Assembly: GCA_002699085.1 (NCBI GenBank) | Contig: PAAR01000004.1 | Coordinates: 14,839 to 78,838 of the forward strand | Source of the DNA: Micavibrio sp. | Lineage (GTDB): Bacteria; Pseudomonadota; Alphaproteobacteria; Micavibrionales; UBA9664 | DNA: 64,000 bases | Direction of reading: 5' to 3' | Shown here: positions 30,276 to 48,700 of the stretch, one piece after another | Position numbering within the stretch: the first letter of the stretch is position 1 | Layout of the letters: every line of letters begins with the position of its first letter | Notes under the pieces: generated by a model | Databases searched by the model: none | What the model saw: the letters and a program-made list of their open reading frames with translations, nothing else | Told to the model about the DNA's origin: nothing | Program-made: the position numbers and the translations under genes

Positions 30276-30860
30276 CTAGCAAGGTTTGTAAACGGTAATT
30301 CTTTGACCGTCTACTACTTTTGTTTCTTGTTTTTCACAAGTAGGCTTAGCTGTTCTTGTTTTGAAATATTCTATGATATTTGTAAGTGAAATGCCGTTTT
30401 CTTCGAGTTCTAAACGCATTTGCTCATTTAAAGCAGGGTCATCGGCATTTTCTAAGGCATCGCTAATAGCTTTTGCAGCTGTTAGTTTCTGCTCTTCATT
30501 TTGAGAATTCCAGCCTTGAATTGTAACATCGGCTATAAGCTGATTTTCTTTACAATCTATATTTGCAACCTGACCTGCGGCAGGGATATATGTTGTTTGA
30601 CCAGTTGGTACGCTATCTACAATTTTGCCTTTGGCATTGACGACATCTTTTGTGACAATCACTAATCGTTCAACCATACATGTTTCTGGATTAACGCGCT
30701 CTAAAGGAAGAGTTGTACCATTATCGGCTCTTTCTGTTGTAGGCTGTACCGAATAAGTTGTCGTTGTTGGTGCGGTAGCACAAGCGCCTGCGCTAATGGG
30801 TAATATAAGCCCCATCATTGCATAATGAAAAGATTTTCTTGAAGATTGTGCAGTCATCAT
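30276..30860 (-). CDS. hypothetical lipoprotein (194 aa, 4 mature Cys)
   Basis: Lipobox PISAGAC. No recognisable family. Its stop lies 8 nt from the ftsH stop. Confidence 0.55.
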   Translation of the reverse strand: MMTAQSSRKSFHYAMMGLILPISAGACATAPTTTTYSVQPTTERADNGTTLPLERVNPETCMVERLVIVTKDVVNAKGKIVDSVPTGQTTYIPAAGQVANIDCKENQLIADVTIQGWNSQNEEQKLTAAKAISDALENADDPALNEQMRLELEENGISLTNIIEYFKTRTAKPTCEKQETKVVDGQRITVYKPC

Positions 30861-30888
30861 TTTATTCCTGTTAATTAATGTTGGGATA

Positions 30889-30916
30889 TATTTACATAAT
30901 ATTATTATAATGTCAA
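30889..30916 (-). promoter_or_regulatory. candidate sigma70-type promoter for the 30276-30860 lipoprotein gene
   Basis: Minus strand has TTGACA (30916-30911), a 16-nt spacer and TAAATA (30894-30889), immediately after the upstream terminator. Confidence 0.3.
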
Positions 30917-30952
30917 GAAAAAAGGAGGGCTGATTTTATTCAGCCCTCCTTT
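30917..30952 (-). terminator. intrinsic terminator after the 303-aa secreted-protein gene
   Basis: AAAGGAGGGCTGA-ttttat-TCAGCCCTCCTTT. On the minus strand the stem is followed by TTTTTTC. Confidence 0.6.
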
Positions 30953-30973
30953 TATATAAATAAGTGTAATTAT

Positions 30974-31885
30974 TTAAAGACCTAGCTTCGATTTCGGTAA
31001 CCAAGTGCAGCCAGCCGTTGTCAAATCATATTTGACTGTATTGCTGTCATCAGGCCAAGCGCAAACTTCTTCAACGCCATTTTGTACACGATCAAAATCT
31101 TTCATATCAGGCGTACATACTTTGCCTAGAACCATGTCATTAGCAACTGTACCGCTGATAACGCCGCCATCTACCATAGTGATAGTACAAGCAGATGTGT
31201 CATTAAAAGCATATGTTGGTACTGTAGGTGTTGCTGAATATGCTTGAGGCTGGTAGGTAGGTGCATCTTTATATACATAAACTGTTTCAGTAACAACTTC
31301 TGGCTCTGCTTGTGCGCCTTGTTGCGGACAGCTACCTGTTAGATTAACATCGTTGATACCTTTTTTAGCTAAAATACCACCAAGAATAGTACCGCCTGCG
31401 CAGGCTTTTTCTTCTGGGGCCATTGCATCAAAACCTGTTTTAGCAACATCAATTACAAGGCTATCTTCAACATTTTGTACACATAGCGCTCGTTTTTCGG
31501 CATCATTTTTAACTTCAGTGCTAGCGTGAGCACCTGATGTGTAATTAAAAATAGGTGTGCCAAAAATATCTTCCTGCTCAGAAACTGTTTTTAACATACA
31601 TGCAGAAATAGGATCTAATCCTTGTGCATTATATGATAAGGCAGGCGCACTCGTAGAAACCCCACCATTGGCAAAGCCAAGAGCAGTTGTTTTATTTGTT
31701 AGCTTTTGTTGTTGTTGCTGTTGCTGGCTTAAAGCATTGTCAATATCTATACCAGGTGTTTCTGGTGTAACAACTGGTGGACAAGGAGCGCTTGTGCTAG
31801 GGTCACCGCAAACTTGGGCAAAGGCAGCTGTTGCGATTGCTGAAGCGCCAAGCGTTAGAACTGTTAATTTTTTTGATACTGACAT
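30974..31885 (-). CDS. hypothetical secreted Cys-rich protein with an N-proximal poly-Gln tract (303 aa)
   Basis: Signal peptide MSVSKKLTVLTLGASAIATAAFA. About ten Cys spread over the mature part. Q7 run. No recognisable family. Confidence 0.55.
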   Translation of the reverse strand: MSVSKKLTVLTLGASAIATAAFAQVCGDPSTSAPCPPVVTPETPGIDIDNALSQQQQQQQKLTNKTTALGFANGGVSTSAPALSYNAQGLDPISACMLKTVSEQEDIFGTPIFNYTSGAHASTEVKNDAEKRALCVQNVEDSLVIDVAKTGFDAMAPEEKACAGGTILGGILAKKGINDVNLTGSCPQQGAQAEPEVVTETVYVYKDAPTYQPQAYSATPTVPTYAFNDTSACTITMVDGGVISGTVANDMVLGKVCTPDMKDFDRVQNGVEEVCAWPDDSNTVKYDLTTAGCTWLPKSKLGL

Positions 31886-32231
31886 TTTACATTCTCCTAA
31901 TTGTTTATGTAAAGTTAAATCTGTTTCGTGGCGTAGTTATGACATATCTAAATTTTTCTGTCAAACAAAAAGTTATGAAAAATAAAAATAATATTTTTTA
32001 TGCTTTATTCCCTATATATATAAGTATAAGTCACAAAAATCCAGCTTTAAAATATGACGTATTTATTTTTCATAAAAAGTTTGCGTTTTGTTGTTTCTTG
32101 GTATATAAATGAGGTTGAAATTAATAGAAGGCTTATATATCAAGAGACGAAGTCGTAAAATATTTGCATTTTTTACATACTCTTATTACATTGGCCAACA
32201 TAACGACAACAAAAGATAGCTTTTAGTAAAT

Positions 32232-33662
32232 ATGTCACAAGTACAGCAAGAGACTAATCATAGACACGATGCTTTTTGGGCACATGCTCAGGCGGCAGCT
32301 AAATCTGTGACTCCAACTAAACCTGTGAAGCCAACGCTCGTGAATGCCATTGGCGAAGATGATTATACTGATGCAGATTATACTGATATACCACCCTCAA
32401 CGGCGACTGAAGAATTTGAAGCCGCGGAAAAAGGTTATAAGTGGTTTGGCTTAAAAAGAAGCACATGGGCTAATCTTATCATAAGTTCCACGCTTGTTGC
32501 TTTGGCAGGTTGGAATATTGATAAGTTGGACAATATGTCTAAAGCGTTGTTCACATCAGGGAGTGATAGTGTTGAAGATACAGCGGCATCACCTGTAGAA
32601 AAAGTTGAAATTCAGGGGGCTAAAATCACTCAAACCGCTTCTGGCGATTTAGAAGTTATTGTTAATCCAGCTGCAACGGTAGATTCTGGCGTAAGTGAGG
32701 CACAAGATTCTGATTTTCAGGGTGCTGATGTAAGTCCTTTGGATAAGGTCGCTCAAATGGTGGCTGCTGCAAATAACCCTATTTTAGAGCAAGAATTAGA
32801 GGCCGCTTATAGTAATGATCCTTGGGGGAAACATAATCTAGCTTATTATATGTCATTTGAAATGCATGGTCTGACATTGGACAAGCAACTTGTCTTGGAC
32901 TTATATGCTGAAGCGGCTGCTCAAGACCATCAGCCATCTATAGATAATTATGCCGTGTTGAGCGATATGTGGGATATGACATCCTCATATTATGATAATT
33001 CAGTATATGTAGAAGAATATGAGGAAGAAACTGCTGTGGTCTCTGTGGCAGAAGATTTACCTCAGGTTCGTGAAGTTCCTCAGGCTGATTACGCTAAGGC
33101 AAATCCTTCTGATGTATTGGCTGAAGGGTTGAAGCCATTAAGCGTTTATCAGCAAGTCGTTGCTGATTATCCAGATGCGCCTACATATGTTTTTAGCTAT
33201 GATGTTGCCACACAAAAAATTTCGAAAAATCTAGCTTTTGGTGATTTAGCTAACCATGAGCGTTTTAACATTATTTTCGAAGATGGTCTGGGTAATACGC
33301 ATGCTTTTGTAGGGCAGGCTTATAATAGTGATTATCTTTTGTATCCAGATGTTTTCTTAAGAGATTTGATCGTTTCAAAAGATATATTCCTATATGAGCC
33401 AGTTCTCACGGCCAAAGTAATAGATGATTCCTATATGATGGCTGACATTGGTGGCGGCATAAATTACGCCGCAGATGATTATTCAGTCAATACCGATTTC
33501 AAAGTTGTTTCAGAGGGTTCTGCCGCTTCACAAGAAGCGCAAACAGCTGCAGCAGCAATACCTATGTTCGAATGTATTGATTATACATGTGATAATAGTC
33601 TGTCTGAAACAGATTTTCGCGTGGCAGAGCAGTTACGTGCACCATCACCATCGAATTCATAA
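32232..33662 (+). CDS. hypothetical single-pass membrane protein, acidic, with one Sel1-like segment (476 aa)
   Basis: One TM helix (WANLIISSTLVALAGW) after ~75 cytoplasmic residues. NDPWGKHNLAYYMSFEMHGLTLDKQLVLDLYAEAAAQDHQPS loosely resembles a Sel1 repeat. No obvious SD at the ATG. Confidence 0.45.
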   Translation: MSQVQQETNHRHDAFWAHAQAAAKSVTPTKPVKPTLVNAIGEDDYTDADYTDIPPSTATEEFEAAEKGYKWFGLKRSTWANLIISSTLVALAGWNIDKLDNMSKALFTSGSDSVEDTAASPVEKVEIQGAKITQTASGDLEVIVNPAATVDSGVSEAQDSDFQGADVSPLDKVAQMVAAANNPILEQELEAAYSNDPWGKHNLAYYMSFEMHGLTLDKQLVLDLYAEAAAQDHQPSIDNYAVLSDMWDMTSSYYDNSVYVEEYEEETAVVSVAEDLPQVREVPQADYAKANPSDVLAEGLKPLSVYQQVVADYPDAPTYVFSYDVATQKISKNLAFGDLANHERFNIIFEDGLGNTHAFVGQAYNSDYLLYPDVFLRDLIVSKDIFLYEPVLTAKVIDDSYMMADIGGGINYAADDYSVNTDFKVVSEGSAASQEAQTAAAAIPMFECIDYTCDNSLSETDFRVAEQLRAPSPSNS

Positions 33663-35082: not shown

Positions 35083-35112
35083 TTGAATTTTGTGAATGCT
35101 TTGTGGTATTAT
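35083..35112 (+). promoter_or_regulatory. candidate sigma70 promoter with extended -10 for the ankyrin gene
   Basis: TTGAAT (35083-35088), an 18-nt spacer ending in TGG, then TATTAT (35107-35112). It covers the GTG at 35103 that the ORF track uses as a start. Confidence 0.35.
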
Positions 35113-35141
35113 GCAAAAATAATAACGATAAGGATAGCGTG

Positions 35142-35420
35142 ATGATCGATATGGAATTGCAGAAAGAGCTATGGAATGCCGCTGAAATAGGTGATTTGGC
35201 AGCAATTCGTATGGCGGTCGTCAAAGGTGCCGATGTTGAAATGCGTGATGAAAAAGAACGATCAGCAATTAATATTGCTAGTCAACATGGTCAAGCGAAT
35301 GCGCTTTCTACGTTATTGGCGGCTAAGGCAATGGCTCGTTTAGAGCGTTATAACCTGCCATTGGCACCTGTTAAAAACCCTGAAGAAGTTATTGAGCGCG
35401 CTTCAAAGAAATCTGCCTAA
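35142..35420 (+). CDS. small ankyrin-repeat protein (~92 aa)
   Basis: LWNAAEIGDLAAIRMAVVKGADVEMRDEKERSAINIASQHGQANALSTLL gives two ankyrin-type helix-turn-helix units. ATG at 35142 lies 7 nt after AAGGA. Confidence 0.65.
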   Translation: MIDMELQKELWNAAEIGDLAAIRMAVVKGADVEMRDEKERSAINIASQHGQANALSTLLAAKAMARLERYNLPLAPVKNPEEVIERASKKSA

Positions 35421-36863: not shown

Positions 36864-39014
36864 ATGCCTGATAGTGCAAAAAATACAGAACCAAAAGTTG
36901 ATGCTTCTGCGCCTGATGTGAAGTCAGAGGCCGCAGGCAATGAGGCTGCGCCTGCTACAACAGAAAAAGCAGCTACATCAGCGGCGGTCAATCCAGCAGG
37001 TAAGAAATTGCGCTTGGGTAAAGCTGTTGATGTCTATATGGATAAGCCAATTAAGCGTTTTAAAAATGCTTACGTGCAATGTTTCCAAGCAAAAAATTTA
37101 GGGACTGGGTCAGATCTCATTGCTGTTTTTTGCGATCGCTATTTACCACCACGTTTCAACAAACTTTCACACTTTGAATCAATCCAGCATCCCAATCTGG
37201 TTAGCTTGGTGGAATCTGGTGTCGTTTTGTCACCACTGGATAATAAAGAATATTTTGTTCTGGCTTACGAGGACAATTTAGGTGCACCTCTCGTGGAAGA
37301 GGATATTGGCTGTGCATTGGGTATTAAGCCAGAAGACGCATACACATATATTCTTTTACCGATTATTGAAGTATTGAAAGATATGCGGAATAAGGATTTA
37401 TTCCATGGTACGATCCGCCCTTCTAATATTTTTCGTGGTACAACGCCTGGGTTAAAAAAGATCATTTTAGGCGATTGCATTTCGGTGCCGCCAGGGGTGG
37501 TTCAGGCTTCCATTTTTGAGCCAATTGAGCGTGCGCTGGCGCAACCAACAGGCAAAGGACCGGGTGTTTTGGTGGATGATCTATATGCACTCGGGGTAAC
37601 TATTGCTTTCTTGTTAAGGCCTAAAGATGTGCTGAAAGGCTTAAGTGAGAAAGAAATTATTATTCGTAAGATTGAGTTAGGCACATTTTCTACTGTATTG
37701 GGTGGCGCTAACATCAAAGGTAATCTCGTGGAGTTCTTGCGTGGTGTTTTACAAGATGATCCAAAACAGCGCTGGGATTTGGATGATGTAACGGCGTGGA
37801 TTGATGGTCAGCGTGGTAATATCACAAAGCAGCCAACAAAAGCGGTTAAAGCCAATAGGCCTATTTTAATTGATGGTAAAAAAATATCTTTTCCTGCCGT
37901 TTTGGCGATAGAGGGATTGGAAAAGCCAAATGAATTAGAGGCTTTGCTTGATAATAGAGAGTTGGGCCAATGGATAGAGCGGTCAATTGATGATAAAGCA
38001 ATGCAAAAAGGGATTGAACTGGCTCTTAAATCAACGAAACGTGCTGTCACAAGTAAAAGTAGTATGTATCAATCAAAAATGGTGTCTCGTCTGGCAATGG
38101 TTTTGCACCCTATTGCACCGTTGCGCTATAGAGAGTTTGCTGTATCACCATTAGGCGCAGGGATCGCTTTAGGAGATGCTTATCATGGTGATAAAGATGT
38201 TAGTGTCTATGATGAAATTATTCGTAATGATGAATTTATATTTTGGCTAACCAATAATGAAGGTGCGGCCTGGGACACTAATGCGATGATGTCTGTTTTC
38301 GCATCTTGTCGTGAGTTTGTCTCAACGACTGTGCCAGGCTACGGTTTAGAGCGCTGTCTGTATTACTTAAATGAAAATATTCCGTGTTTAAGTCCTATTT
38401 TAGACGGGTACTATGTGCGGACACCGGAAGAGCTCTTGATTGCACTGGATAAGATCGCCGCTAAGAAGAATAGGGCATATAAGCCATTCGATAGACATAT
38501 TTTGGCTTTTTTATTGGTTAAAGAGCGTAATTTGTTGGAAAACTCGCTTATTGATATCAATTCAAAAGCGTCTTGGCGACAAGTGTTTGGTATTTTGAAA
38601 GTATTTAGCACAATACAGCAGCTCGCAGGTATGGGGGAATTGCCAGGTCTGGCGAATTGGATGTTGGAAATTATGGAGCCAATATATAAAAGATATCACA
38701 ATAGAGAAACGCGTCTTGAGTTGAAAACAAGGTTGCATGAGAAATGCGGTGGTAGTTTAGAAAAAATGTTTAAATATATCGATAACAACGATGTTGTCGC
38801 TAATGATTCTAAACGATTCAAAGAAGCTTTACGTGATTATATTATGCTCGATAAAGAAAGAGATATCTACGAAAGAGGTTTGGAAAACCCTGGTACTGTA
38901 GGTGTGGAAAGGGGGCATCAGGCAGCGGCAGTTTTTTGCGTGATTATTGCGGTCTGTTTGATATTAGGTTTCGTTAGTGTTTCACTTGGCAATCATCAAT
39001 ATTTAGGGTTTTAA
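36864..39014 (+). CDS. tail-anchored protein-kinase-fold protein with degenerate catalytic motifs (predicted pseudokinase), 716 aa
   Basis: Hanks-fold order HPNLVSLVESG / FVLAYEDNLG / FHGTIRPSNIF (HRD replaced by HGT) / ILGDCIS / FEPIERA / DDLYALGVTIAFLL / DPKQRW. No VAIK-type Lys. C-terminal TM helix AAAVFCVIIAVCLILGFVSVSL. Confidence 0.6.
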   Translation: MPDSAKNTEPKVDASAPDVKSEAAGNEAAPATTEKAATSAAVNPAGKKLRLGKAVDVYMDKPIKRFKNAYVQCFQAKNLGTGSDLIAVFCDRYLPPRFNKLSHFESIQHPNLVSLVESGVVLSPLDNKEYFVLAYEDNLGAPLVEEDIGCALGIKPEDAYTYILLPIIEVLKDMRNKDLFHGTIRPSNIFRGTTPGLKKIILGDCISVPPGVVQASIFEPIERALAQPTGKGPGVLVDDLYALGVTIAFLLRPKDVLKGLSEKEIIIRKIELGTFSTVLGGANIKGNLVEFLRGVLQDDPKQRWDLDDVTAWIDGQRGNITKQPTKAVKANRPILIDGKKISFPAVLAIEGLEKPNELEALLDNRELGQWIERSIDDKAMQKGIELALKSTKRAVTSKSSMYQSKMVSRLAMVLHPIAPLRYREFAVSPLGAGIALGDAYHGDKDVSVYDEIIRNDEFIFWLTNNEGAAWDTNAMMSVFASCREFVSTTVPGYGLERCLYYLNENIPCLSPILDGYYVRTPEELLIALDKIAAKKNRAYKPFDRHILAFLLVKERNLLENSLIDINSKASWRQVFGILKVFSTIQQLAGMGELPGLANWMLEIMEPIYKRYHNRETRLELKTRLHEKCGGSLEKMFKYIDNNDVVANDSKRFKEALRDYIMLDKERDIYERGLENPGTVGVERGHQAAAVFCVIIAVCLILGFVSVSLGNHQYLGF

Positions 39015-39021
39015 ATAAGCT

Positions 39022-39582
39022 ATGGCTAAAAAAGTAAAAAAAGTAGCTGTTCCAAAGGCGGGGCGTAAAAAGAAAAAGTCAAAATTGGCTCTACAGTTCA
39101 TTTTTATTATCATTGTTTTTATTATTATGAGCTTATTGTTCTTGCCTACGACTTTTGTGGTGTTTTTTGGAATGATGCCAACATGGGCATTGTTTTCAAT
39201 GGATGGCTCCAAGAATAAGCTCAAAACAGTTGCTGTGGGAGCAATGAATTTAGCGGGTTGTACTTACGTGCTAACAGATTTGTGGGTAACGAGTCATACA
39301 TTGCCCTATGCGATTAGTTTGCTTTTAAAGCCGTCTAGTATGATTGCTATCTATTTGATGGCGATGGCTGGTTTCGTTCTGCAACGTGTTATTTTGGGTA
39401 TCGTTTCTTCAATGATGCTGCAGCAAGCACGGGCTAAAATAAAAATTATTTTGCGTCGTCAGGATGAGTTAAAAGCGAAATGGGGGCCAGAAGTGACAGG
39501 TACTATTCCGCTTGATATGGACGGTTTTCCCTTAAAGGATGTGCCCGATCAACCAGCGGTTGCATCAACACCAGCCGCTTAA
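39022..39582 (+). CDS. small polytopic membrane protein with a Lys-rich N-terminus (186 aa)
   Basis: MAKKVKKVAVPKAGRKKKKSK followed by about four hydrophobic helices. Starts 7 nt after the pseudokinase stop. Confidence 0.5.
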   Translation: MAKKVKKVAVPKAGRKKKKSKLALQFIFIIIVFIIMSLLFLPTTFVVFFGMMPTWALFSMDGSKNKLKTVAVGAMNLAGCTYVLTDLWVTSHTLPYAISLLLKPSSMIAIYLMAMAGFVLQRVILGIVSSMMLQQARAKIKIILRRQDELKAKWGPEVTGTIPLDMDGFPLKDVPDQPAVASTPAA

Positions 39583-40502
39583 AACTGAATGTCGAAATAA
39601 TAACGATAATTTGGATTTGTTGCAGAAGGCGGTATGAATTTAAACGGGATTAAGGCCCGACCTTGTTTCTTTAATTGGATAGCGATGATATTTTTTCCGT
39701 CTTGCGCAGTTACAGAAGCGTCACTTACAGCACTGCTTTTCTTGATTTGCTGCAACATGCTAGGTGAAACGGGTGCACCATTTGTTTCAATCGTTACAAG
39801 GTTCTCTTGGCTATCAAAAAGAGCTGTATTTTGCAATTTTTCTGAAGCATCAAAAACGACCCGCATAGAACTGTTAGAGACTGAGAGACGGATATCTTTT
39901 AGTGAACCAGATTTCGCAGGGGCAATCGTTTGAGGCTTGATATCAAGTGGTTTATTTTGTGCGGTATTCTCGACAGGTGTCTGCTCGGCATTTTGTTGAA
40001 CTGTCTGTGTTGATGCTGGGGCTTCTGTAAGAGTTTTTAATTGCGTGACAAGCTCGCCAATGTCTTTTTCAATATTGATGAGGCGGTTAAGAGAAGGACG
40101 CATTTCATCAAATTCATTACGGAAGTTTTGGACGGCATTTTCAAGTCGTGTAAAGCGCTCATTGTTATTGCTAATATCTTCAATGAATAGTGTTTTATTA
40201 TTGTCGCTACCTATTGCGCTAGCACTGTTATAATTGGCAGTTGCTTGTGGTTTTGGGAAGTCAGTTGAGGGTGTTGCAAGATCTTTTATATCATAGTCAG
40301 TTTCATTGCCAATAGTCGTTAATGTGCCACTGCGTGCTTGAGGACTCGTCTGTTTTACTTGTTTATTTTTACTAAACATAGTGGGCATAGAAAGCCCGCA
40401 GCCTGATAGCAGCATGCTATAGCTTAATAGTGCTCCTATAAAAGCAAGGCGGAGCCGCTTGGAAAGCAGCTTTTTGCTAGGCTTTTTGTCTGTTAAAACC
40501 AT
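39579..40502 (-). CDS. lipoprotein with a coiled-coil segment and a C-terminal AMIN-like domain (307 aa)
   Basis: Lipobox MLLSGC. FTRLENAVQNFRNEFDEMRPSLNRLINIEKDIGELVTQLKTL looks coiled-coil. SLKDIRLSVSNSSMRVVFDASEKLQNTALFDSQENLVTIE resembles AMIN. Confidence 0.45.
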   Translation of the reverse strand: MVLTDKKPSKKLLSKRLRLAFIGALLSYSMLLSGCGLSMPTMFSKNKQVKQTSPQARSGTLTTIGNETDYDIKDLATPSTDFPKPQATANYNSASAIGSDNNKTLFIEDISNNNERFTRLENAVQNFRNEFDEMRPSLNRLINIEKDIGELVTQLKTLTEAPASTQTVQQNAEQTPVENTAQNKPLDIKPQTIAPAKSGSLKDIRLSVSNSSMRVVFDASEKLQNTALFDSQENLVTIETNGAPVSPSMLQQIKKSSAVSDASVTAQDGKNIIAIQLKKQGRALIPFKFIPPSATNPNYRYYFDIQF

Positions 40503-40604: not shown

Positions 40605-41090
40605 TTAAAAATTAATAATAAGGTCGTAATCTGTGTCGTAATGGCCATTATTGTATATAGCACCTCCACTTAGTGAAGTTAGGCGGGCCATAACATTAAA
40701 GGTATCTGTTCCTGCGGCATTTGTTTGCAATGTATTAGGTCGTATGCGGATATTATCAATCGTAAAATCTGCGCCAGGTCCTGTAAGGACTGTGCTTGGT
40801 GCAAATGTGATTGTGTATGGTGAGTTTGCAGGTCCGCCAGTCAATGTAAACTCGCCTCTTGTGGGTGCGATGTAAATAATGGTGTTGGGGTTAGCTGTGT
40901 ATCCACCATTATTTTGGATATTAATACGGAGTGTCGTATTGAAGCTTTTAAAACCAAAAGTACCAAAACTGAGGTCTTGGGTCTGTGTAATGATGACCTG
41001 TGCTTGTGCGGATAAAGAAATTGTTATCGCAATAAAAATGCTTACAAAGACAAGAGCGATATTATTCTTTTTGCAGAACAATTTCATCAT
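40605..41090 (-). CDS. DUF4402-like fimbrial subunit (minor or second subunit)
   Basis: Start trimmed to MMKLFCKKNNIALVFVSIFIAITISLSAQA (signal peptide). LSFGTFGF motif just after the cleavage site and a C-terminal aromatic (…DLIINF). Overlaps the chaperone stop. Confidence 0.55.
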   Translation of the reverse strand: MMKLFCKKNNIALVFVSIFIAITISLSAQAQVIITQTQDLSFGTFGFKSFNTTLRINIQNNGGYTANPNTIIYIAPTRGEFTLTGGPANSPYTITFAPSTVLTGPGADFTIDNIRIRPNTLQTNAAGTDTFNVMARLTSLSGGAIYNNGHYDTDYDLIINF

Positions 41091-41871
41091 ACAAAGTTCC
41101 ATTATCTGTGTCTGTATAGCTAAGACGTAATTCACCTTTGCCTACAGGCATTTCATCTAGTGTAATAGTCCCTGTGCGCTCATTAATTTCATCAAATAAA
41201 TTGAAATTTGTCACAAAACCAATGTTTTTCCAGTCACCGCCTTGAGGGCGCCATGCTACGTCGATACGCCCCAATGTGCTGGCGCTACCAGATCTTACAG
41301 CTTTAAACGTAACTTCTGGCTTTTTACTCTTTGTTTCACTTGGCGTTTTGAGCAGAATGTCTTCAAGCTTACCTGAGGCAGATAACTCACCTTGCCTAAC
41401 GATAACGGGGATTGATATGCCTAGATTAATACCAAGTCCAACTGATACTTTACCGCTCTCAGTATCTGCTTTTTGAGGTTGTTTTTCTGCAATAGCTAAA
41501 AGGTGGAAGCGATATTCACCATCTGGCAAATCAGCGGGACGTCTCAAAGAAAGGCGAACCTTTTGCTTACCCATAGGCGGAAGAGTAAATGTTTTCGGTG
41601 ACATTCTGAGGACCTCAATCGGGTTAAATAACGGCGAGAGAGGCTCTTCTAAGGTAGTATAGGCGCCGACTGTATCTTGTTTGTAATTGATTGTTTTGAG
41701 TGTGTAGGTTTCTTCTTTGTCTGAAAGATTTAATACGGTTATTTCACCAGATCTCTCACGGTTTTCTATAACGACCATGCGCGGAATAATATCAACGCGT
41801 GCAAAGGCGGTGCTTGTTACAAAAAACGTTAACAATAAAATAAAAAAAGCTATTACATTCGAGCGCATCAT
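41062..41871 (-). CDS. periplasmic fimbrial chaperone (PapD-like Ig fold)
   Basis: Signal peptide MMRSNVIAFFILLLTFFVTSTAFA, then IIPRMVVIENRERSGEITVLNLSDKEETYTL and RMSPKTFTLPPMGKQKVRLSLRRPADLPDGEYRFHL, typical of chaperone strands. Start is ambiguous (GTG 41895, ATG 41880/41871/41868). Confidence 0.6.
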   Translation of the reverse strand: MMRSNVIAFFILLLTFFVTSTAFARVDIIPRMVVIENRERSGEITVLNLSDKEETYTLKTINYKQDTVGAYTTLEEPLSPLFNPIEVLRMSPKTFTLPPMGKQKVRLSLRRPADLPDGEYRFHLLAIAEKQPQKADTESGKVSVGLGINLGISIPVIVRQGELSASGKLEDILLKTPSETKSKKPEVTFKAVRSGSASTLGRIDVAWRPQGGDWKNIGFVTNFNLFDEINERTGTITLDEMPVGKGELRLSYTDTDNGTLYDEIVLQKE

Positions 41872-41901
41872 ATCCTCCATAGATCGTACACTCACTATAA
41901 C

Positions 41902-41933
41902 CGAAAAAAGCCCCGCTGCAAGAGCGGGGCTTT
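41902..41933 (-). terminator. intrinsic terminator between the major-subunit gene and the chaperone gene
   Basis: Minus strand reads AAAGCCCCGCT-cttgc-AGCGGGGCTTT followed by TTTTTCGG. Confidence 0.6.
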
Positions 41934-41964
41934 AACAATATATTTAAGAAAATGAAATTAATAA

Positions 41965-42531
41965 TTAGTAAGAAACAACTACGTCAACTGTACCAGCGAA
42001 CGTACCATCTGTTAGCTGTGTTGCTTGAACTGGTGTTGTTAGTGTCGCACCAATTTCATATGTATCTAAAGCTGTTGCTGTGTATGGGATCGGTGTACCA
42101 AGCGTTACTGCCGCACTACCTGCACCATTAATATCAACAGTAAACGCACTCATTGCCAACGTATCTGTACCATCTGTTGGGTTGATAAGGTTGTTCATTG
42201 TAAAGTTGATTGTTGCGCCTGTAACACCAGCAGCAGATACTTCAGCAGCTGTTGGTGAGCCAGAAGCTTGCGCTACTAGGGCAGGTGCACCACCTGTCGC
42301 AAATGAAATAGAGTCATCTGTTGCAATTGTTGCAGATGCAGAGTTTGCGTTGTCTGTTATGGCAATTAATGTACCAAAATCAAGTGGTGTCACTTGTGTT
42401 AACGTGATCGAGTTAGCAACATCAGCTGTAATGTTAACAGTTAATGTATCTGCTGCATCTGATGTCGTTGCAAACAAGGCAACCGTGGCTGCCGTTAATG
42501 TTAGGTATTTTAGTGTTTTTGTAAGTTTCAT
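41965..42531 (-). CDS. DUF4402-like major fimbrial subunit (188 aa)
   Basis: Signal peptide …ALFATTSDA. Ala/Thr/Gly-rich mature protein with LDFGTLIAI near the N-terminus and a …VDVVVSY C-terminus. Strong SD GAAGGAG 7 nt before the ATG. Followed by a terminator hairpin. Confidence 0.6.
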   Translation of the reverse strand: MKLTKTLKYLTLTAATVALFATTSDAADTLTVNITADVANSITLTQVTPLDFGTLIAITDNANSASATIATDDSISFATGGAPALVAQASGSPTAAEVSAAGVTGATINFTMNNLINPTDGTDTLAMSAFTVDINGAGSAAVTLGTPIPYTATALDTYEIGATLTTPVQATQLTDGTFAGTVDVVVSY

Positions 42532-42687
42532 TTTTTGGCTCCTTCAAAAAAGTCAGTTAGTGTGTTAAAAATTAATGTATAGTATCATAATTAAGAATAT
42601 CGCCAAATAGTTAATTGAATCTTAAAAAACATAATTTAAATAAAATTTTATTTAAACTTTTACAGAGGGATAGACATCGTAAAGCAG

Positions 42688-45600
42688 ATGAGGTTTTTCA
42701 AGAGAAATACATGCTTTCTAGTGTTGCTTTGTTTGAGTTTACAGGCTTGTCCAAACACTGCTTGGGCACAAGAAATAGCAGATTTAAGGTCTCTAGCTAG
42801 TAGTTTTGTGCAAAAACTATCACCTCAATATAAGGATCTTCAGGCACAAAAAGATGCTTTGGATCAAATTCCTGAGGGTTCGTCACTGCTATTGCGCCCT
42901 AGATCGGAAAAAGTCGTATTTGATGGTGAAATATATTCTTTCAAGCGTAATAACGCTATATATATGGCGTTAGAAGATTTTATTGAATTATTAGAGTTCA
43001 ATGTAGGTTTTGATAATAGTACATTAAAAGGGAGTGGCTGGTTTTTGCGCGAAGACTGGCATATTGATATTGATATTCCCCATAAAAAAGTTGTATCTCG
43101 TGGCGTTACTTACAATATTGATTCGGCGAATATTTTTGAAGAAGATGGTATTGTTTTTGTTAAAGACACAACGCTAGCCAAGTGGTTTGGGTTAAGCTTT
43201 GACTACGATATAGAGCAGCAGTTCATTGATATTGAGAGCGCATATCCGCTGCCGTCGGTTGCGCGTAATTTACGACAAACAAAAGGACCTGGCAGCATAT
43301 CAACGCTTAATGAGCCTGTTTTGCCTAGATTGGAACAGGAAAAGCAGCTGTTTGATTTAAATGTTGCTGATGTAAGTTTGGGTACATCAATGACGAAACA
43401 GTCATCAGGTGATGCACTTAACCGCCAATACGGAAATGTGACTGTAGAAGGTGAGCTCTTAAAACATAATGCCTATGTTTTTTCAGCGGCAGATAGCGAT
43501 AATAATTTATCCTCTGTTGTCGCTCGATTATCTAAAAGATCAGAAGATCCAGATTTATTGGGGCCTTTAAATGCTCGTTCATATGCTATTGGAGATATTG
43601 AACAAACTGATATGCCCTTAACAGGTAACACATCACAAGATTTAGGATTTCGGTTTGATAACAATCCGCTGGAGAACACTGATTTTGCTACGACAAATAT
43701 TGTCGGTGATGGCTTACCTGGTTGGGATGTCGAGCTTTACCGAGAAGGCATATTATTAGATACGCTGACGATAGATAATGATGGCCGTTATGAATTTAAT
43801 AATGTGCAATTATTCCTTGATGACAACACTTTTGAACTATTCTTTTATGGTCCTCAAGGTGAGATACGTAGTGAAGAGATTCAGGTGCCTGTAACAGCCG
43901 ATTTATTAAGAACACAGGATAAAACCTATGAGTTTTCTGTTTCTTTTGAGGATACTCAAACATTTGAAAACACGCTTACGCCAGATCAGGATCAAGGAGC
44001 TATGCATGTTGCAGGACGCTATAATAAACTTCTCGGTGATGAAACCTTAGGTTATGTCGGGTTTCGGTCACGTCAGGTAGGTGGCGAACGTAAAGATTTT
44101 TTAAGCTCAGGTATTTCGACAATTGTTGGGCAAACTATTCTGGATACCAACTTTGCTGTTGATGAAGATGCCAGTATTGCTGGAGAAGCTTTGCTGCGAC
44201 AAAATATTGATGACTGGAACTTATCTTTGCGTGCCAAAGCAAATTCAGATGGATTTGCACCTGATGACATCACTGACCCTCTTATCAGAGAATTTAACTT
44301 CAGTGCGTCAAAGCCTTTGGGTAAAGATGGGAATGGTATAAAAGGTAATGTATTGTTGAATGCATTACATCAAGAAACAGTAGCAGGTAGTATGCTTGAT
44401 TCCGTTGACGCTGGGTTCAGTCAGCAGTTTAACCGTACTAATCTGTCTCATCGACTTACCTATGAGAATAGCGATATTGTCGGCGGTGTTGATAATGAAG
44501 ATGTCGATTATACACTGTCTGCACGGCGTATTATAGGGCCAATGTTTACGAGATTTGGGGCAACATATAATATTACGCCAGATTCAGAATTAGAGAGCTT
44601 ATTTGGCCAAGTTAATTATCGTTACAATAGTAAATTTTCAACGGATGTTTCTTTGCAGCATCAATTAGATAATGAATTAACAACAGGGCGTTTAAACTTA
44701 AATTATATTGGTGATAAGATAAGAACATCCCCCTTTGTTGAGATGAATTCAGATGACCGTATATATGCAGGTGTAAACCTTAATTTCTCGTTGATTGATC
44801 CTGCATACGAAGATACACCCATTGTAACCAGTCGTAGACAAATTGGTCGAGGGTTGGTGTCAGCACATGTGTTCTTGGATAAGAATGGCAATCTTATTTT
44901 TGATGAAGGAGATGAACCTATTAAAAATGCAACCGTTGAAAGTGTTAATACACGCCGAAGTGACATTACAAATGCGCAGGGTTATACAACGTTAAAAGAG
45001 CTGACCACCACTCGTCCAACTGATATTCGTCTTGTTGCAGACACATTACCTGATCCGTTTATGATACCAGCCTTTGAGGGTCGCTCAATTTTTCCAGAAG
45101 CGGGTAGCATGATTAAGATGGAGTTCCCTGTTCATATGTCAGGAGAGCTTGATGGTGCAGTATATTATTTATCGGAGACAGGTAGTAAACAAACATCAAG
45201 CTATCATGGTATTACGCTAACTTCGCTAGATCATCCTGACCGTAAGGTGTTTGAAGCAAGATCAGAAACAGATGGATATTACTTGATGTATTTATTGCCT
45301 CCTGGTCGGTATCTTTTAAATACCGAACCTAAAAGCAGAGCGGGTAAATCATTAGGCAACACCACGCCTCAGATCGTTACGATTGGCTATGAAGGCACAA
45401 TCTTAAGTAATCAGGATATCCAAGTTACTGTAGGGCAGCCTTATATTCCTTATGAAATTCATTTTGCTGAAGGTGCAGCAAAATATGCCGATGCGCAGCA
45501 ATATACATTAAAAGTGAAGCGAAAAGGGGCGTCTAAATTATCTGAACTTATTAGTGGTCTGTTGAGTAAAAGGCTTAATAAATCAATGATTAAGGATTTA

Positions 45601-45765
45601 ACACGCATTGCTGATAAAAAGACAGAAGACGGTGTATATGAGCAATACACAGATAGTGATCTTCAAAAATTACATCATGCATGCGTAGAAATAAAACAGA
45701 CAGGCATTACGTGTGCTATTGAAGTTTTTGTACCTGCAGCAAATCAAGAAGTTGCGTTACGTTAA
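42688..45765 (+). CDS. fimbrial outer-membrane usher-like protein with extra C-terminal Ig/CarboxypepD_reg-like domains (1,025 aa)
   Basis: Signal peptide. GWDVELYREGILLDTLTIDNDGRYEFNNVQLFLDDNTFELFFYGPQGEIRSEE resembles the usher plug/middle-domain pattern. Long beta-rich middle part. VFLDKNGNLIFDEGDEPIKNATVES resembles a CarboxypepD_reg-like unit. Divergent from the subunit-chaperone operon. Confidence 0.5.
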   Translation: MRFFKRNTCFLVLLCLSLQACPNTAWAQEIADLRSLASSFVQKLSPQYKDLQAQKDALDQIPEGSSLLLRPRSEKVVFDGEIYSFKRNNAIYMALEDFIELLEFNVGFDNSTLKGSGWFLREDWHIDIDIPHKKVVSRGVTYNIDSANIFEEDGIVFVKDTTLAKWFGLSFDYDIEQQFIDIESAYPLPSVARNLRQTKGPGSISTLNEPVLPRLEQEKQLFDLNVADVSLGTSMTKQSSGDALNRQYGNVTVEGELLKHNAYVFSAADSDNNLSSVVARLSKRSEDPDLLGPLNARSYAIGDIEQTDMPLTGNTSQDLGFRFDNNPLENTDFATTNIVGDGLPGWDVELYREGILLDTLTIDNDGRYEFNNVQLFLDDNTFELFFYGPQGEIRSEEIQVPVTADLLRTQDKTYEFSVSFEDTQTFENTLTPDQDQGAMHVAGRYNKLLGDETLGYVGFRSRQVGGERKDFLSSGISTIVGQTILDTNFAVDEDASIAGEALLRQNIDDWNLSLRAKANSDGFAPDDITDPLIREFNFSASKPLGKDGNGIKGNVLLNALHQETVAGSMLDSVDAGFSQQFNRTNLSHRLTYENSDIVGGVDNEDVDYTLSARRIIGPMFTRFGATYNITPDSELESLFGQVNYRYNSKFSTDVSLQHQLDNELTTGRLNLNYIGDKIRTSPFVEMNSDDRIYAGVNLNFSLIDPAYEDTPIVTSRRQIGRGLVSAHVFLDKNGNLIFDEGDEPIKNATVESVNTRRSDITNAQGYTTLKELTTTRPTDIRLVADTLPDPFMIPAFEGRSIFPEAGSMIKMEFPVHMSGELDGAVYYLSETGSKQTSSYHGITLTSLDHPDRKVFEARSETDGYYLMYLLPPGRYLLNTEPKSRAGKSLGNTTPQIVTIGYEGTILSNQDIQVTVGQPYIPYEIHFAEGAAKYADAQQYTLKVKRKGASKLSELISGLLSKRLNKSMIKDLTRIADKKTEDGVYEQYTDSDLQKLHHACVEIKQTGITCAIEVFVPAANQEVALR

Positions 45766-48700
45766 GCGGGTTCAGGTGTTTTTTCGTGGACTGGATTATA
45801 TTTGCGCTGAGGGTGCGCAACATTTCTCATGTTGTCGTCAATCTCACCCAGGTGTTTATTGCTTTTCATCCATCTTTTTATTTCATTAAATAAAGCTTTT
45901 TTCTTTGTGCTGCGGCCAATAAAATGTGCATATCTTTCTGGTTCGGATTCAATAGCGTCTATTTCACGCATTGCCTGATGGTATTGGTAAAAGGAGATGT
46001 AACGACGCATTTGCAAAATTTCATTTTGATCGTCTGTTGTTAGGTCTTTTTTACAGATATCGTAATGCACATTATTAATAGTGATGGCTGCAGTCTCTAA
46101 TAAAGGTCTATATTTCATTATCTCTTTATAAAGAGTAGATGCTTCTTTCTTATTATCGTCCGTAATCGCACTAACATATTGACTTAAAAGTTTTGTGATT
46201 CTTTTATAACCAGTATTGGTGTTGCCAGCGCGGATCTGTCCAAGTTTAGCTATGCCTTGTTCTGCGCGCGGTCCTTTTTTCTTGATTGGCCATAAAGGCT
46301 TATCAAGTATAGGAAATTCAGGTTGTTCAAGACTTCGGAAAAATTGATCTTTGTTGCCCTCATTTGTTTCCGATATTTTATTAGATAAGGTTTTCCAATT
46401 GTCATCGGGGTCAATAAAATTACGATATTGTTTAACGATACCTGCTCGGTAATCTAACGTTTCTCTTGATAGTCCTGCATTGGCATTGACGACAAAGCCA
46501 AATTTCGCAGGCATAACAATAGGATTTTTCTTCATATCAATGATTTCAAAAACATCATCTTTACGGTCATCAGCCATGGCAAGAATTTTTTCAGCAGGCA
46601 AGCTCATATATTTATAAGGATCATATTTCAGATTAAAGACAACGGCATATTGGTCATCTTTCATTGTTGCAACCAAACAACCCATTTTCGGTATGGGCTG
46701 CAAGGCAGAAGGGCTGACATAAGAAAAGACAGGATGCGGGCCATTAAAACCTGTGGCCATACCCATCATATCGTTTAGTAAATGATAATTACTACTATCG
46801 GCATTAATCACCATCTGCCCAACAATTTCTGGTGAGATATCATATTGCTTCCAAAATAGTTTTAAGCAGAGCTGAGTATCAGCCAATGCACCATGCAAAT
46901 TACGGCTGTTATATTTGATGTTCATTGCATCGCAAAGGGCACTTAAACGGTGATCGTCAAGCCCTGAGGGTGATTTGTGTGGTTTGTATTTTTGCGGTGC
47001 GAAAGCAGCCAATGCACGTGATATATTACGAGTGTCTATGCCAATAATGCCATAAGTCTCAAACGGTTTTAAACGAGCGTGTAAATTGCGACCTAGTTCT
47101 TTTTCAATCATACGTTGATCGAAGGGTTTGTTATGTGCGGCAACAATAACTTTCATTCTGTTTTTTGCTGTAACAAGCTCTGGTTCTTTGGTGGATTTTT
47201 TTAACGCCAATTGTTGTGAATTTATACGCAAATCATCAACAGCATCGTTAAATGCTTGGGTAAAGCTTGCAGGCGTCAAACCTTGTGAGAAATCTTTGTA
47301 TGTCAGTCCTGTTATAAGCATCGCCTCAGGTGACGGCACAATATAATCAGGTATTTGCTGTTTAACAATTTTTGTATCAATTGTTTTGCGGGTTTCGCTG
47401 TTTTGTAGAATAAGCCCTAATTCATAGATCCGATGTTCAGGCGCTTCTTTGCCTGTGGTTTCTGTGTCTAGCCCAGTAACTATATGAATTTCTTTATCTT
47501 CAAAAACAGTTGATTTCTTGTAACGCTCGATACCAAAAGGAAAATCTTGTGTGAGATAGCCATTACCAGAAAGAACATTGAAACGTGGTGATAGAAAGAA
47601 AGGGAGACTACTTGCTAATGCATTTTCAGAGGTAAATCCTGCATCTCTTAAAACAGCATTCTCAAACCGTTCTATAAGTTTTCCAGCTACGGTAAAAGGA
47701 TCTGGCTTCACGCCAATAACGATTGTTGAGAAACGACCTTTTAACCAAAATTTATTAGCGGGGGCGTGTGATTTTATACCGATAAAGCTAGAGGGTTCAG
47801 TTCCAGTTACTTCAGCATTTTTACCTTTCTTAATACGAATGCGTGCATTATGTACAGCACGCATAGTCTGTGCACCGACCTTTTCAGCTAAGAGCATATG
47901 TGCGTTGATTTGTGCTGGAGAACCATGTGCAGGAATTGTAAAAGGCTTTCCAGATTCAATAATGGTTTCCATACAACCGTCTTCGGAAGAGTGACCAGAG
48001 CCGTGTCGAATAGTAAGCTCACCTGCTTTTGCGATGGCTTCTGGCATATAAACTTTGGCACCATGGAATATTTCTATATCAATCTTAGAATCTGCTCTTT
48101 GCCATTTGTTGTTACCAACGGGGATTACACCTTGTAAGTAACAAACAACATCTAAATCATTGAGGCGAAACTTATCATTCACATCACGGACCAGCTTATT
48201 CATAGCTGATTGTGGTTCATCTTGTGTACCTGTTGCGAGGATGGCATAACGCTCGGCGCCTTCACCTTTAAGGAGCTTTTTCGCTTTTTTCTGGCTGTCC
48301 ATCAGGATTGTCACGCCCATTCGTTTTGCCCATTCTTTTAACGCATGGGCCTTATCGGCATCACGGACCAGATCTTGTACGGCCTTGCCGCTGATGATTA
48401 ATGTGTTGCAATCTGTTTGCGCAAGAGCGTGTATTGTGGTGGCAAGGCGTGTAATGTTTGACCCTAGCATAGGGAAAATCATTCTTTGTCCCGCATGAGC
48501 TTCTACTATGTTGATGATATCTTCTTCGACTTCTAATTCTGTAGGATTGCGTTCTGTCCTATTAGCGCCTGTAGAATCTGCCGTCATGACATCTGGTTCA
48601 AAGCCACGCAACCATGTGTTTAGATCGGGAAGTCCCAGACGATTAGCAGGATCACGACTGTAATCCCCTGTATGCCTTAATGAACCAGCAGGTGTTATGA

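Follow-up and report, generated by a model that had tools for sequence, protein, structure and literature searches.

Organization of the locus

The window analyzed here is a 64,000-nucleotide (nt) stretch of contig PAAR01000004.1 (positions 14,839 to 78,838; assembly GCA_002699085.1) from the alphaproteobacterium Micavibrio sp., and the subject of this work is a pair of adjacent genes on its plus strand. The first (gene 1, 36864-39014 including the stop codon) encodes a protein of 716 amino acids that carries a degenerate protein-kinase fold and a predicted C-terminal membrane anchor, and it is supported by the open reading frame (ORF) listing, by 124 full-length homologues and by a confident structural model. 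The second (gene 2, 39022-39582 including the stop codon, plus strand) encodes a polytopic membrane protein of 186 amino acids that is also in the ORF listing, has 41 detectable homologues and is adjacent to gene 1 in all loci compared. The two proteins probably act together at the inner membrane as a scaffold or switch that does not depend on catalysis.

A preliminary description of this DNA, made from the sequence alone, had proposed both ORFs at a distance of 7 nt, and the ORF listing and the junction sequence agree with it; the peptide motifs quoted there are all present in the translation at the positions given, including HGT at 37404-37412. The junction reads TAA-ATAAGCT-ATG, in which the 7-nt spacer ATAAGCT (39015-39021, plus strand) lacks a strong Shine-Dalgarno sequence, and gene 1 and gene 2 may be translationally coupled, as was suggested in that description. 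Since the 3′ end of gene 2 lies 4 nt inside a convergent gene on the minus strand (39579-40502), the transcription unit stops at gene 2. On the 5′ side, the pair is preceded in the window by ftsH, three unannotated ORFs, glmM, a small ankyrin-repeat gene and purA. purA and gene 1 are 72 nt apart, and neither a terminator nor a convincing promoter was found in the interval.

A protein-kinase fold in the gene 1 protein

The gene 1 protein begins with a tail rich in Ala, Pro, Glu and Lys (residues 1-47; 36864-37004, plus strand), which is predicted to be disordered (predicted local distance difference test (pLDDT) 40-44) and varies within the family, its alignment columns being gappy and unconserved. 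It is followed by a catalytically degenerate domain of the Hanks type (residues ~48-315; 37005-37808, plus strand), which was identified by profile comparison with PDB sequences and by Foldseek. When the single sequence is used, the match to known kinases is only borderline: Pfam Pkinase (PF00069) scores 14.7 bits (E = 0.021), below its gathering threshold of 31.7 bits, and the closest PDB sequence is that of twitchin kinase (E = 4.5e-4). The fold therefore becomes unambiguous only with the help of homologues. A search of 5.8 billion proteins yielded 124 full-length relatives of 620-750 amino acids, and a profile built from 116 of these homologues matched 1288 PDB kinase chains, with MK3, MK2 and CaMK as the best (E = 4.3e-13). 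The AlphaFold2 model, computed on the homologue alignment, has a mean pLDDT of 91.8 and is compact over the full length (predicted template modelling score 0.85). In this model, residues ~48-315 superpose on the kinase domains of PknB, WNK3/WNK1 and DAPK1 (Foldseek, E~1e-9, target-normalized TM-score ~0.7). In addition, the Asp of subdomain IX (D239) is kept in 115 of the 116 aligned sequences and the Arg of subdomain XI (R303) in 112. The presence of a bilobal fold of the protein-kinase type (Hanks/eukaryotic protein kinase), with the subdomains in canonical order, is thus confirmed by sequence profiles and by structure comparison, the two checks that the preliminary description had named for its kinase assignment.

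Genes of this family are already known to databases, in that NCBI labels members as 'protein kinase family protein'. Nevertheless, only about a third of the homologues have a precomputed PF00069 match.

Loss of catalytic residues with retention of metal-ligand positions

The residue counts given below for gene 1 are those of the columns of 116 aligned homologues. The catalytic loop of the window protein reads HGTIRPSN (37404-37427, plus strand) where canonical kinases have HRDxKPxN, and in the profile alignments the family pattern H-R-a-I-R-p-s-N stands opposite HRDvKPeN. The position of the catalytic-base Asp is T183 in the window protein and is filled by A, N, S, G, C, R or T in 116/116 sequences, never by Asp; a motif scan of 233 further family members also detected no Asp at this position, with Glu in 5 of them. 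The position of the VAIK Lys is F89, which lies in the strand beta3 (IAVFC; 37119-37133, plus strand) and is occupied by V, I, L, M, A, F or Q and never by Lys; its register comes from the alignment with MK2, in which the family pattern f-A-l-v is opposite F-A-L-K. The Glu of helix alphaC is unconserved, as judged from the MK2 alignment and the family columns. Both the replaced catalytic-loop Asp and the missing VAIK-type Lys had been read from this one sequence before, and the homologues show that the two losses extend to the family.

The glycine-rich loop is degenerate as well, as had been proposed, but it had been placed one hairpin too far along the chain. The segment LGTGSD (37098-37115), previously taken as this loop, is the turn between beta2 and beta3 in the strand map of the model, whereas the true beta1-beta2 loop is PIKRFKNAY (residues ~62-70; 37047-37073, plus strand). 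Since this loop is also degenerate according to the strand map and the family columns, the earlier conclusion stands. Four features of an active Hanks kinase, namely the VAIK Lys, the alphaC Glu, the HRD Asp and the Gly-rich loop, have thus been lost in the family.

Other positions around the cleft are well kept. These include the His of HRD (H181, 115/116), the catalytic-loop Asn (N188, 108/116), the Ala of VAIK (A87, 108/116) and the APE Glu (E219, 109/116), and the position of the catalytic-loop Lys is Arg (R185 in the window protein) in 85/116 sequences. The equivalent of the DFG region is LGDC (37467-37478, plus strand; family motif LG[DE]C), in which D204 is opposite the DFG Asp and is Asp or Glu in 108/116 homologues, with a register of +/-2 because the single-sequence alignment is shifted by 2 relative to the profile alignment. 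The two metal-ligand positions of the kinase fold (catalytic-loop Asn and DFG Asp) are therefore retained in most members, subject to the same register for D204. The segment from LG[DE]C to EPxE comprises just ~15 residues and has no conserved Ser or Thr.

At the start of helix alphaC, R97-F98 (37152-37157, plus strand) contains an Arg that is present in 115/116 sequences. In recent work, a C-helix 'RF' arginine has been reported as a characteristic feature of Ser/Thr kinases of bacteria (bioRxiv 10.1101/2025.01.12.632604). R97 may correspond to this residue, although its register is not fixed, the MK2 profile alignment putting it 2 residues rather than 4 before the alphaC-Glu position.

Because Asp and Lys never occur at the catalytic positions in the homologues, gene 1 is a pseudokinase and not a misaligned active kinase, and, as judged from the aligned sequences, the family as a whole is a pseudokinase family that keeps its metal-ligand positions. 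The reading of gene 1 as a membrane-tethered pseudokinase of the Hanks fold is accordingly borne out by the profile, by Foldseek and by the residue counts, together with the C-terminal helix described below.

A C-terminal helical domain, a stalk and a membrane anchor

The ~380 residues after the kinase fold, which had been left unassigned, match no Pfam or NCBIfam family and no PDB sequence. AlphaFold2 gives a confident model for this part (residues 318-716, pLDDT 91.4), in which residues ~330-640 (37851-38783, plus strand) form an all-alpha domain of ~310 residues and of unknown fold. When its profile was compared with PDB sequences, the only match was a spurious one to a designed armadillo-repeat protein (E = 0.011), and Foldseek searches with the model detected no relative in PDB (best E = 0.71) or in BFVD (best E = 1.0). 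A fold search of this region had been recommended in the preliminary description, and its outcome is a well-folded domain with nothing similar in either collection.

The family alignment reveals many conserved residues in this part, the best kept of which are W370, P416, P419, W461, G-x-G-x-E-R-C-L-Y500...C508-x-S, D543-R-H545, Q585, R617 and D648. The most conserved motif of the domain is GYGLERCLYYLNENIPCLSP (38337-38396, plus strand), which contains the invariant Y500 and C508. It is followed by the DRH motif (38490-38498, plus strand), in which D543 is invariant and H545 is found in 115/116 sequences; E496 and R497 are, like H545, at least 95% conserved. Beyond the domain, the model shows a long juxtamembrane stalk helix (residues 642-673; 38787-38882, plus strand) with the invariant D648.

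The only strongly hydrophobic segment of the protein is found at residues ~686-708 (38919-38987, plus strand; Kyte-Doolittle 2.99; model helix 676-710), with only ~8 residues after it. A C-terminal hydrophobic helix is present in 119/120 gene 1 homologues, and a conserved Gly (G684) and small residues lie beside it on the juxtamembrane side. The single transmembrane (TM) helix that had been claimed for the end of the protein is thus a family trait. With one TM helix at most ~30 residues from the C-terminus and no signal peptide, the protein has the features of a tail-anchored protein, whose insertion is predicted. Considering that a signal peptide is lacking, that the N-terminus is disordered and hydrophilic and that the helix is C-terminal, gene 1 is predicted from sequence and model to encode a tail-anchored protein with all of its domains in the cytoplasm.

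The partner protein

The 41 homologues of the gene 2 protein have 150-194 amino acids and have in common an N-terminus rich in Lys and Arg and a set of three to four hydrophobic segments, which agrees with the small Lys-rich protein of about four TM helices previously proposed for this position. The N-terminus of the window protein, MAKKVKKVAVPKAGRKKKKSK (39022-39084, plus strand), is rich in Lys, a character conserved in the homologue alignment, and is predicted to be cytoplasmic. It leads into a hydrophobic core (39085-39405, plus strand) with 3-4 TM segments predicted from hydropathy, in which P53 (within GMxPT), N76, A114 and G117 are conserved. The C-terminal part (39406-39579, plus strand) is predicted to be a cytoplasmic tail and consists of a basic amphipathic stretch and then the conserved pattern W154-G-x-E-V-T-G...PLD..GF. 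By the positive-inside rule, both ends of the protein would be cytoplasmic. No Pfam, NCBIfam or PADLOC family matched the gene 2 protein.

Co-conservation and distribution of the pair

To examine the pairing, we searched with a hidden Markov model of the partner in a non-redundant set of 86 loci in which 600 nt or more of sequence follow gene 1. A gene 2 homologue was the next same-strand ORF downstream of gene 1 in 86/86 loci, two apparent misses being start-codon artefacts. The distance between the genes was between -4 and +20 nt in 72/86 loci: the genes overlapped with a gap of -4 or -1 in 19 and were 0 to 20 nt apart in 53. The gap was 21 to 70 nt in 6 loci, and the remaining 8 had larger negative values, probably due to over-extended ORF starts. 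A homologous small gene was also found 7-52 nt 3′ of gene 1 in six singly fetched loci, including those of M. aeruginosavorus, Thalassospira, Roseospira and Dongia, and 9 nt downstream in the two closest relatives (L088 and L089), whose proteins are 44-48% identical to the window protein. Where gene order has been rearranged, the breaks lie on the outer flanks of the pair, before gene 1 or after gene 2, and in no case separate the two genes.

The evolutionary distances of the two genes point in the same direction. Pairwise distances of gene 1 and gene 2 in 57 loci are correlated with r = 0.80, whereas those of gene 1 and gene 2 against the syntenic purA give r = 0.57 and 0.62, respectively, leaving a partial r of 0.70 for the pair; this is soft evidence for co-evolution. 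The dedicated small membrane partner that had been postulated for gene 1 is therefore supported by its adjacency across genomes and, more softly, by the distances.

The family is also large. A search of 1.84 billion cluster representatives (50% identity) with the profile of the C-terminal domain returned at least 1117 matches at E <= 1e-30 and 1771 at E <= 1e-3, and relatives of gene 1 are found in at least 364 species. The top 150 matches, fragments apart, all have the same architecture, with the domain at the same position in a protein of ~680-720 amino acids. Since these matches are uniform and the partner is adjacent throughout, both architecture and pairing are fixed. Carriers comprise Micavibrio-like metagenome-assembled genomes, many of which are labelled Pseudobdellovibrionaceae, and Rhodospirillales-type bacteria such as Niveispirillum, Nitrospirillum, Arenibaculum and Oleisolibacter. 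The pair is thus a real two-gene unit that has been kept together across hundreds of alphaproteobacterial species.

Genomic neighbourhood

The wider neighbourhood was compared in 80 genome loci, the best-scoring ones of a scan with one genome per species. The sole universally conserved neighbour of gene 1 is gene 2, and purA is directly upstream of the pair in 54/80 loci. On the downstream side, tadE, a tadF-like gene and tadG come next, on the same strand, in ~50/88 loci; among the 50 loci with this block, it begins 61-224 nt past the partner gene in 49 (median gap 136 nt). Most of the Micavibrio-like genomes have this arrangement, the window being an exception. In M. aeruginosavorus, for instance, the pair is followed by tadE, a 181-amino-acid gene, a tadG-like gene, flp and genes for a prepilin peptidase, rcpC and secretin (L001, 8822-14157). 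On a rough neighbour-joining tree, this order spans two of three deep clades, including loci whose upstream flank has changed, while the Rhodospirillales-type clade keeps purA and has no tad genes beside the pair. The tad adjacency is an independent hint towards a surface fibre, which we regard as a lead and not as a conclusion.

An envelope role had previously been argued from the fimbrial genes that lie beside the pair in the window. This fimbria-like cluster (40605-45765) consists of a DUF4402 protein (40605-41135, minus strand), a chaperone-like protein of 277 amino acids with Ig/Fn3-like features (41062-41895, minus strand), an Ala/Thr-rich secreted protein of 188 amino acids (41965-42531, minus strand) and a divergent protein of 1025 amino acids with CarboxypepD_reg/SdrD_B-like stretches (42688-45765, plus strand). 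A DUF4402-type cluster adjoins the pair in none of the other loci examined, the closest relatives L088 and L089 included, and the argument therefore fails; the cluster was dropped as a functional clue.

Several other features of the surroundings were also noted. Genes for GGDEF-domain proteins lie at most ~1-2 kb from the pair in 13 of 38 loci without tad genes (L007, L052, L054, L061 and Nitrospirillum/Niveispirillum loci), on either side and either strand; as such genes are so common, this proximity may be due to chance. CtrA-box-like sequences (TTAA-N7-TTAA, at most 1 mismatch) occur upstream of gene 1 in 23/84 loci compared with ~11 in shuffled sequences. This signal is too weak to serve as evidence, and the window has no such site. 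A small ankyrin-repeat protein (~90-105 amino acids) is encoded just 5′ of purA and is syntenic in Micavibrio-like genomes (window 35103-35420, plus strand; L001 4197-4469; L088 6232-6507; L089 6222-6488); L089 lacks purA, and gene 1 there comes immediately after the ankyrin gene. The interval between ftsH and glmM (30276-33662) contains three ORFs without a Pfam match (194 and 303 amino acids on the minus strand, 476 amino acids on the plus strand), whose counterparts are found in the same order and orientation in L088 (1078-4738). Finally, a fusion protein of 1546 amino acids is encoded on the minus strand at 45762-50402. Its first ~400 residues have no assignment, and a metallo-beta-lactamase plus RNase J beta-CASP module (residues ~430-765) is combined in it with an exonuclease of the DEDDh RNase_T type (residues 978-1183).

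Proposed function and alternative explanations

The kinase fold without its catalytic residues, the tail anchor and the obligate pairing of the genes lead us to infer that gene 1 and gene 2 form an operon for a stoichiometric inner-membrane complex, which probably serves as a non-catalytic scaffold or switch. In such a complex, the gene 1 protein would comprise, in order, the disordered tail, the dead kinase fold, the all-alpha domain of ~310 residues, the stalk helix and one C-terminal anchor, and the gene 2 protein would pass the membrane roughly four times, with its Lys-rich N-terminus and conserved tail on the cytoplasmic side. The anchor helix of gene 1, with its juxtamembrane Gly and small residues, might pack against the helices of the partner. 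The pseudokinase and the helical domain could then work in the cytoplasm without phosphotransfer, either as a docking platform or as a conformational switch controlled by a ligand or a partner, for which the kept cleft residues (H181, R185, N188, D/E204, Q214 and R97) and the conserved surface of the C-terminal domain might be used. The complex may recruit or regulate another envelope-associated machine, for which the Tad/Flp pilus is the sole recurrent candidate. That the Tad pilus is the client of the pair in tad-linked species is a tentative idea, and on balance a somewhat unlikely one.

Several observations weigh against this interpretation. The complex of the two proteins is itself a prediction, drawn from the gene pairing and from the features of gene 1. 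Conservation as strong as that of H181, N188 and D/E204, which are metal and catalytic-loop positions, is unusual in a scaffold devoid of all activity and would be compatible with nucleotide binding or with some unorthodox reaction, and the invariant C508 and D543 of the C-terminal domain, with H545, could form an active site. With regard to the pilus, TadE/F/G homologues are missing from the 64-kb window, and the tad adjacency, which is not seen in L088, L089 or the whole Rhodospirillales-type clade, could simply be an inherited gene order; furthermore, the 80 genome loci were chosen as the best-scoring ones and not at random.

The same conservation keeps alive the alternative that gene 1 is an atypical enzyme or a nucleotide switch, whose cleft binds a nucleotide and supports an unorthodox reaction such as AMPylation or SelO/SidJ-like transfer, or whose catalytic residues have been relocated as in WNK kinases. 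In addition to H181, N188, D/E204 and R97, which are nearly always present around the cleft, and to R185 and Q214, most members retain the Ala of VAIK, the best structural matches include WNK kinases and about half of the family (~45%) has a Lys at position 72 in beta2. However, the window protein has Gln at position 72, and the idea of a WNK-like relocated Lys was rejected because of this and of the limited share of members with the Lys. Moreover, no member has the beta3 Lys, none of 349 sequences has the catalytic-base Asp, both the Gly-rich loop and the alphaC Glu have been lost and neither SelO (PF02696) nor UbiB/ABC1 (PF03109) matches gene 1 at E <= 1. We thus consider an atypical enzyme unlikely.

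The invariant Cys and Asp and the nearly invariant His also allow the view that the all-alpha domain is the working part, as a new enzyme or a metal site formed by C508, D543, H545 and Y500, and that the pseudokinase is regulatory. This domain is confidently folded, resembles nothing known and has four invariant residues (Y500, C508, D543 and D648, the last in the stalk helix) among the 116 sequences, with H545, E496 and R497 close to invariant. Nevertheless, it shows no likeness to any enzyme family by sequence or fold, and its conserved Cys, His and Asp could equally be structural or belong to an interface, which makes this explanation improbable. A more elaborate proposal, in which the pair is a hitherto unrecognized core membrane signalling or assembly complex of Micavibrio-like and Rhodospirillales-like Alphaproteobacteria whose nucleotide- or metabolite-binding pseudokinase and new-fold Cys-His-Asp domain control the Tad/Flp pilus or another envelope machine, appears quite unlikely at present.

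Two further explanations are effectively excluded. That the pair is an anti-phage defence kinase module is very improbable: PADLOC matches gene 1 to MkoA (E = 6e-9) and PD-T4-6 (E = 3e-5), but these matches are confined to the generic kinase fold, no PADLOC match was obtained for the partner and a full set of system genes is lacking, and the idea was rejected on genomic context, the locus lying among housekeeping genes (ftsH, glmM and purA) in deep vertical synteny, with purA upstream in most loci and without the patchy, island-like distribution typical of defence genes. That gene 1 is an ordinary active Hanks kinase with misaligned catalytic residues is scarcely credible, since the weak single-sequence Pfam match and the DFG register that differs by 2 between alignments are outweighed by the MK2/MK3 profile alignments, which place HRa opposite HRD and fAlv opposite FALK, and by the lack of any homologue with Asp at the base position or Lys within beta3.

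Significance

Bacterial pseudokinases have barely been studied, and few of them, EssB/YukC and the MviN domain for example, have known roles. The gene 1 family is large and uniform, and because it mostly scores below the Pfam kinase threshold, kinome surveys built on PF00069 may have under-sampled it. The pair unites a dead kinase fold that keeps metal-ligand positions, a domain of ~310 residues without a relative in PDB and an obligate membrane partner. Its hosts include epibiotic predators (Micavibrio), for which attachment pili matter, as well as plant-associated Nitrospirillum and Niveispirillum, and its role, once known, could reveal a lineage-specific organizer of an envelope machine. 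If the core-complex proposal were true, gene 1 would represent a new class of bacterial pseudokinases in addition to the seven families described so far, and perhaps one with a chemistry of its own.

Comparison with known systems

No description of the gene 1 family, of its pseudokinase nature, of its C-terminal domain or of the partner was found in the literature, and the pair was matched to no described bacterial system. This is in line with the preliminary description, which could not place the two-gene module either: Pfam and NCBIfam have no family for the C-terminal domain or the partner, and the motifs of described pseudokinase families differ from those of gene 1.

SelO/SidJ-type pseudokinases lack the catalytic Asp, retain the metal-binding Asn/Asp and the beta3 Lys and are covered by Pfam families of their own. 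Gene 1 resembles them in the missing catalytic Asp and the kept metal-binding residues, a lead that comes from general knowledge, but it differs in having no beta3 Lys.

A recent classification of bacterial Ser/Thr kinases distinguishes seven pseudokinase families, namely ActPs1-3, GLW, CP1, DYD and DLHK (PMC12599244; bioRxiv 10.1101/2025.01.12.632604). None of them fits gene 1 by motif, the comparison being one with published descriptions and not with sequences. GLW is the only proteobacterial family of the seven that bears a TM helix (PMC12599244; bioRxiv 10.1101/2025.01.12.632604). According to its description, GLW replaces HRD, a poly-Leu stretch (LLLL/W) is found in beta3 and the DFG Asp is lost in 100% of members, whereas the gene 1 family has H-[RG]-x, [FI]-A-[LV]-[VI]-C and LG[DE]C at these sites. 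On the same basis, DLHK members retain the Asp of HRD and lack a TM helix, CP1 members are cytosolic and occur with COG3899, and the ActPs families are actinobacterial with characteristic indels, none of which applies to gene 1; more generally, the motifs and the helicase/DNA2 or COG3899 partners by which DLHK, CP1, DYD and ActPs1-3 are described were not found for it.

EssB/YukC, a membrane pseudokinase of Firmicute type VIIb secretion, is a structural organizer of a membrane machine (PMC12599244). Like gene 1, it combines one TM helix with a cytoplasmic kinase fold that is catalytically degenerate. However, EssB has a sizeable extracellular domain past this helix and belongs to loci of the Gram-positive type VII secretion system (T7SS), whereas the gene 1 protein has only ~8 residues beyond the membrane, an inserted cytoplasmic all-alpha domain of 310 residues, a 4-TM partner and alphaproteobacterial hosts. 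No T7SS genes were found in any locus examined, and EssB/YukC is not among the top PDB matches listed for gene 1, the two not having been compared directly.

The pseudokinase domain of MviN/MurJ in Mycobacterium tuberculosis, which belongs to ActPs3, is membrane-tethered and cytoplasmic, acts in envelope biogenesis and does not bind ATP (PMC12599244). It shares with gene 1 the tethered cytoplasmic pseudokinase, but ActPs3 is actinobacterial, has lost all three catalytic residues in 97-98% of members, has a large deletion in the activation loop and is fused to a 14-TM flippase. In the gene 1 family, unlike in ActPs3, the His, the Asn and the Asp/Glu of the DFG-like motif are kept, and the pseudokinase is a tail-anchored protein in its own right. 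PknB-type Hanks kinases are the best structural matches and also have a kinase domain followed by a C-terminal TM helix; however, PknB is active and carries extracellular PASTA sensor domains, whereas gene 1 has lost catalysis and has nothing extracellular.

The closest analogues of the pair in logic are therefore EssB/YukC and the MviN domain, and the closest by fold are PknB-type kinases. The pair is a widespread, uncharacterized variation on the theme of the membrane-anchored bacterial pseudokinase, with a novel domain.

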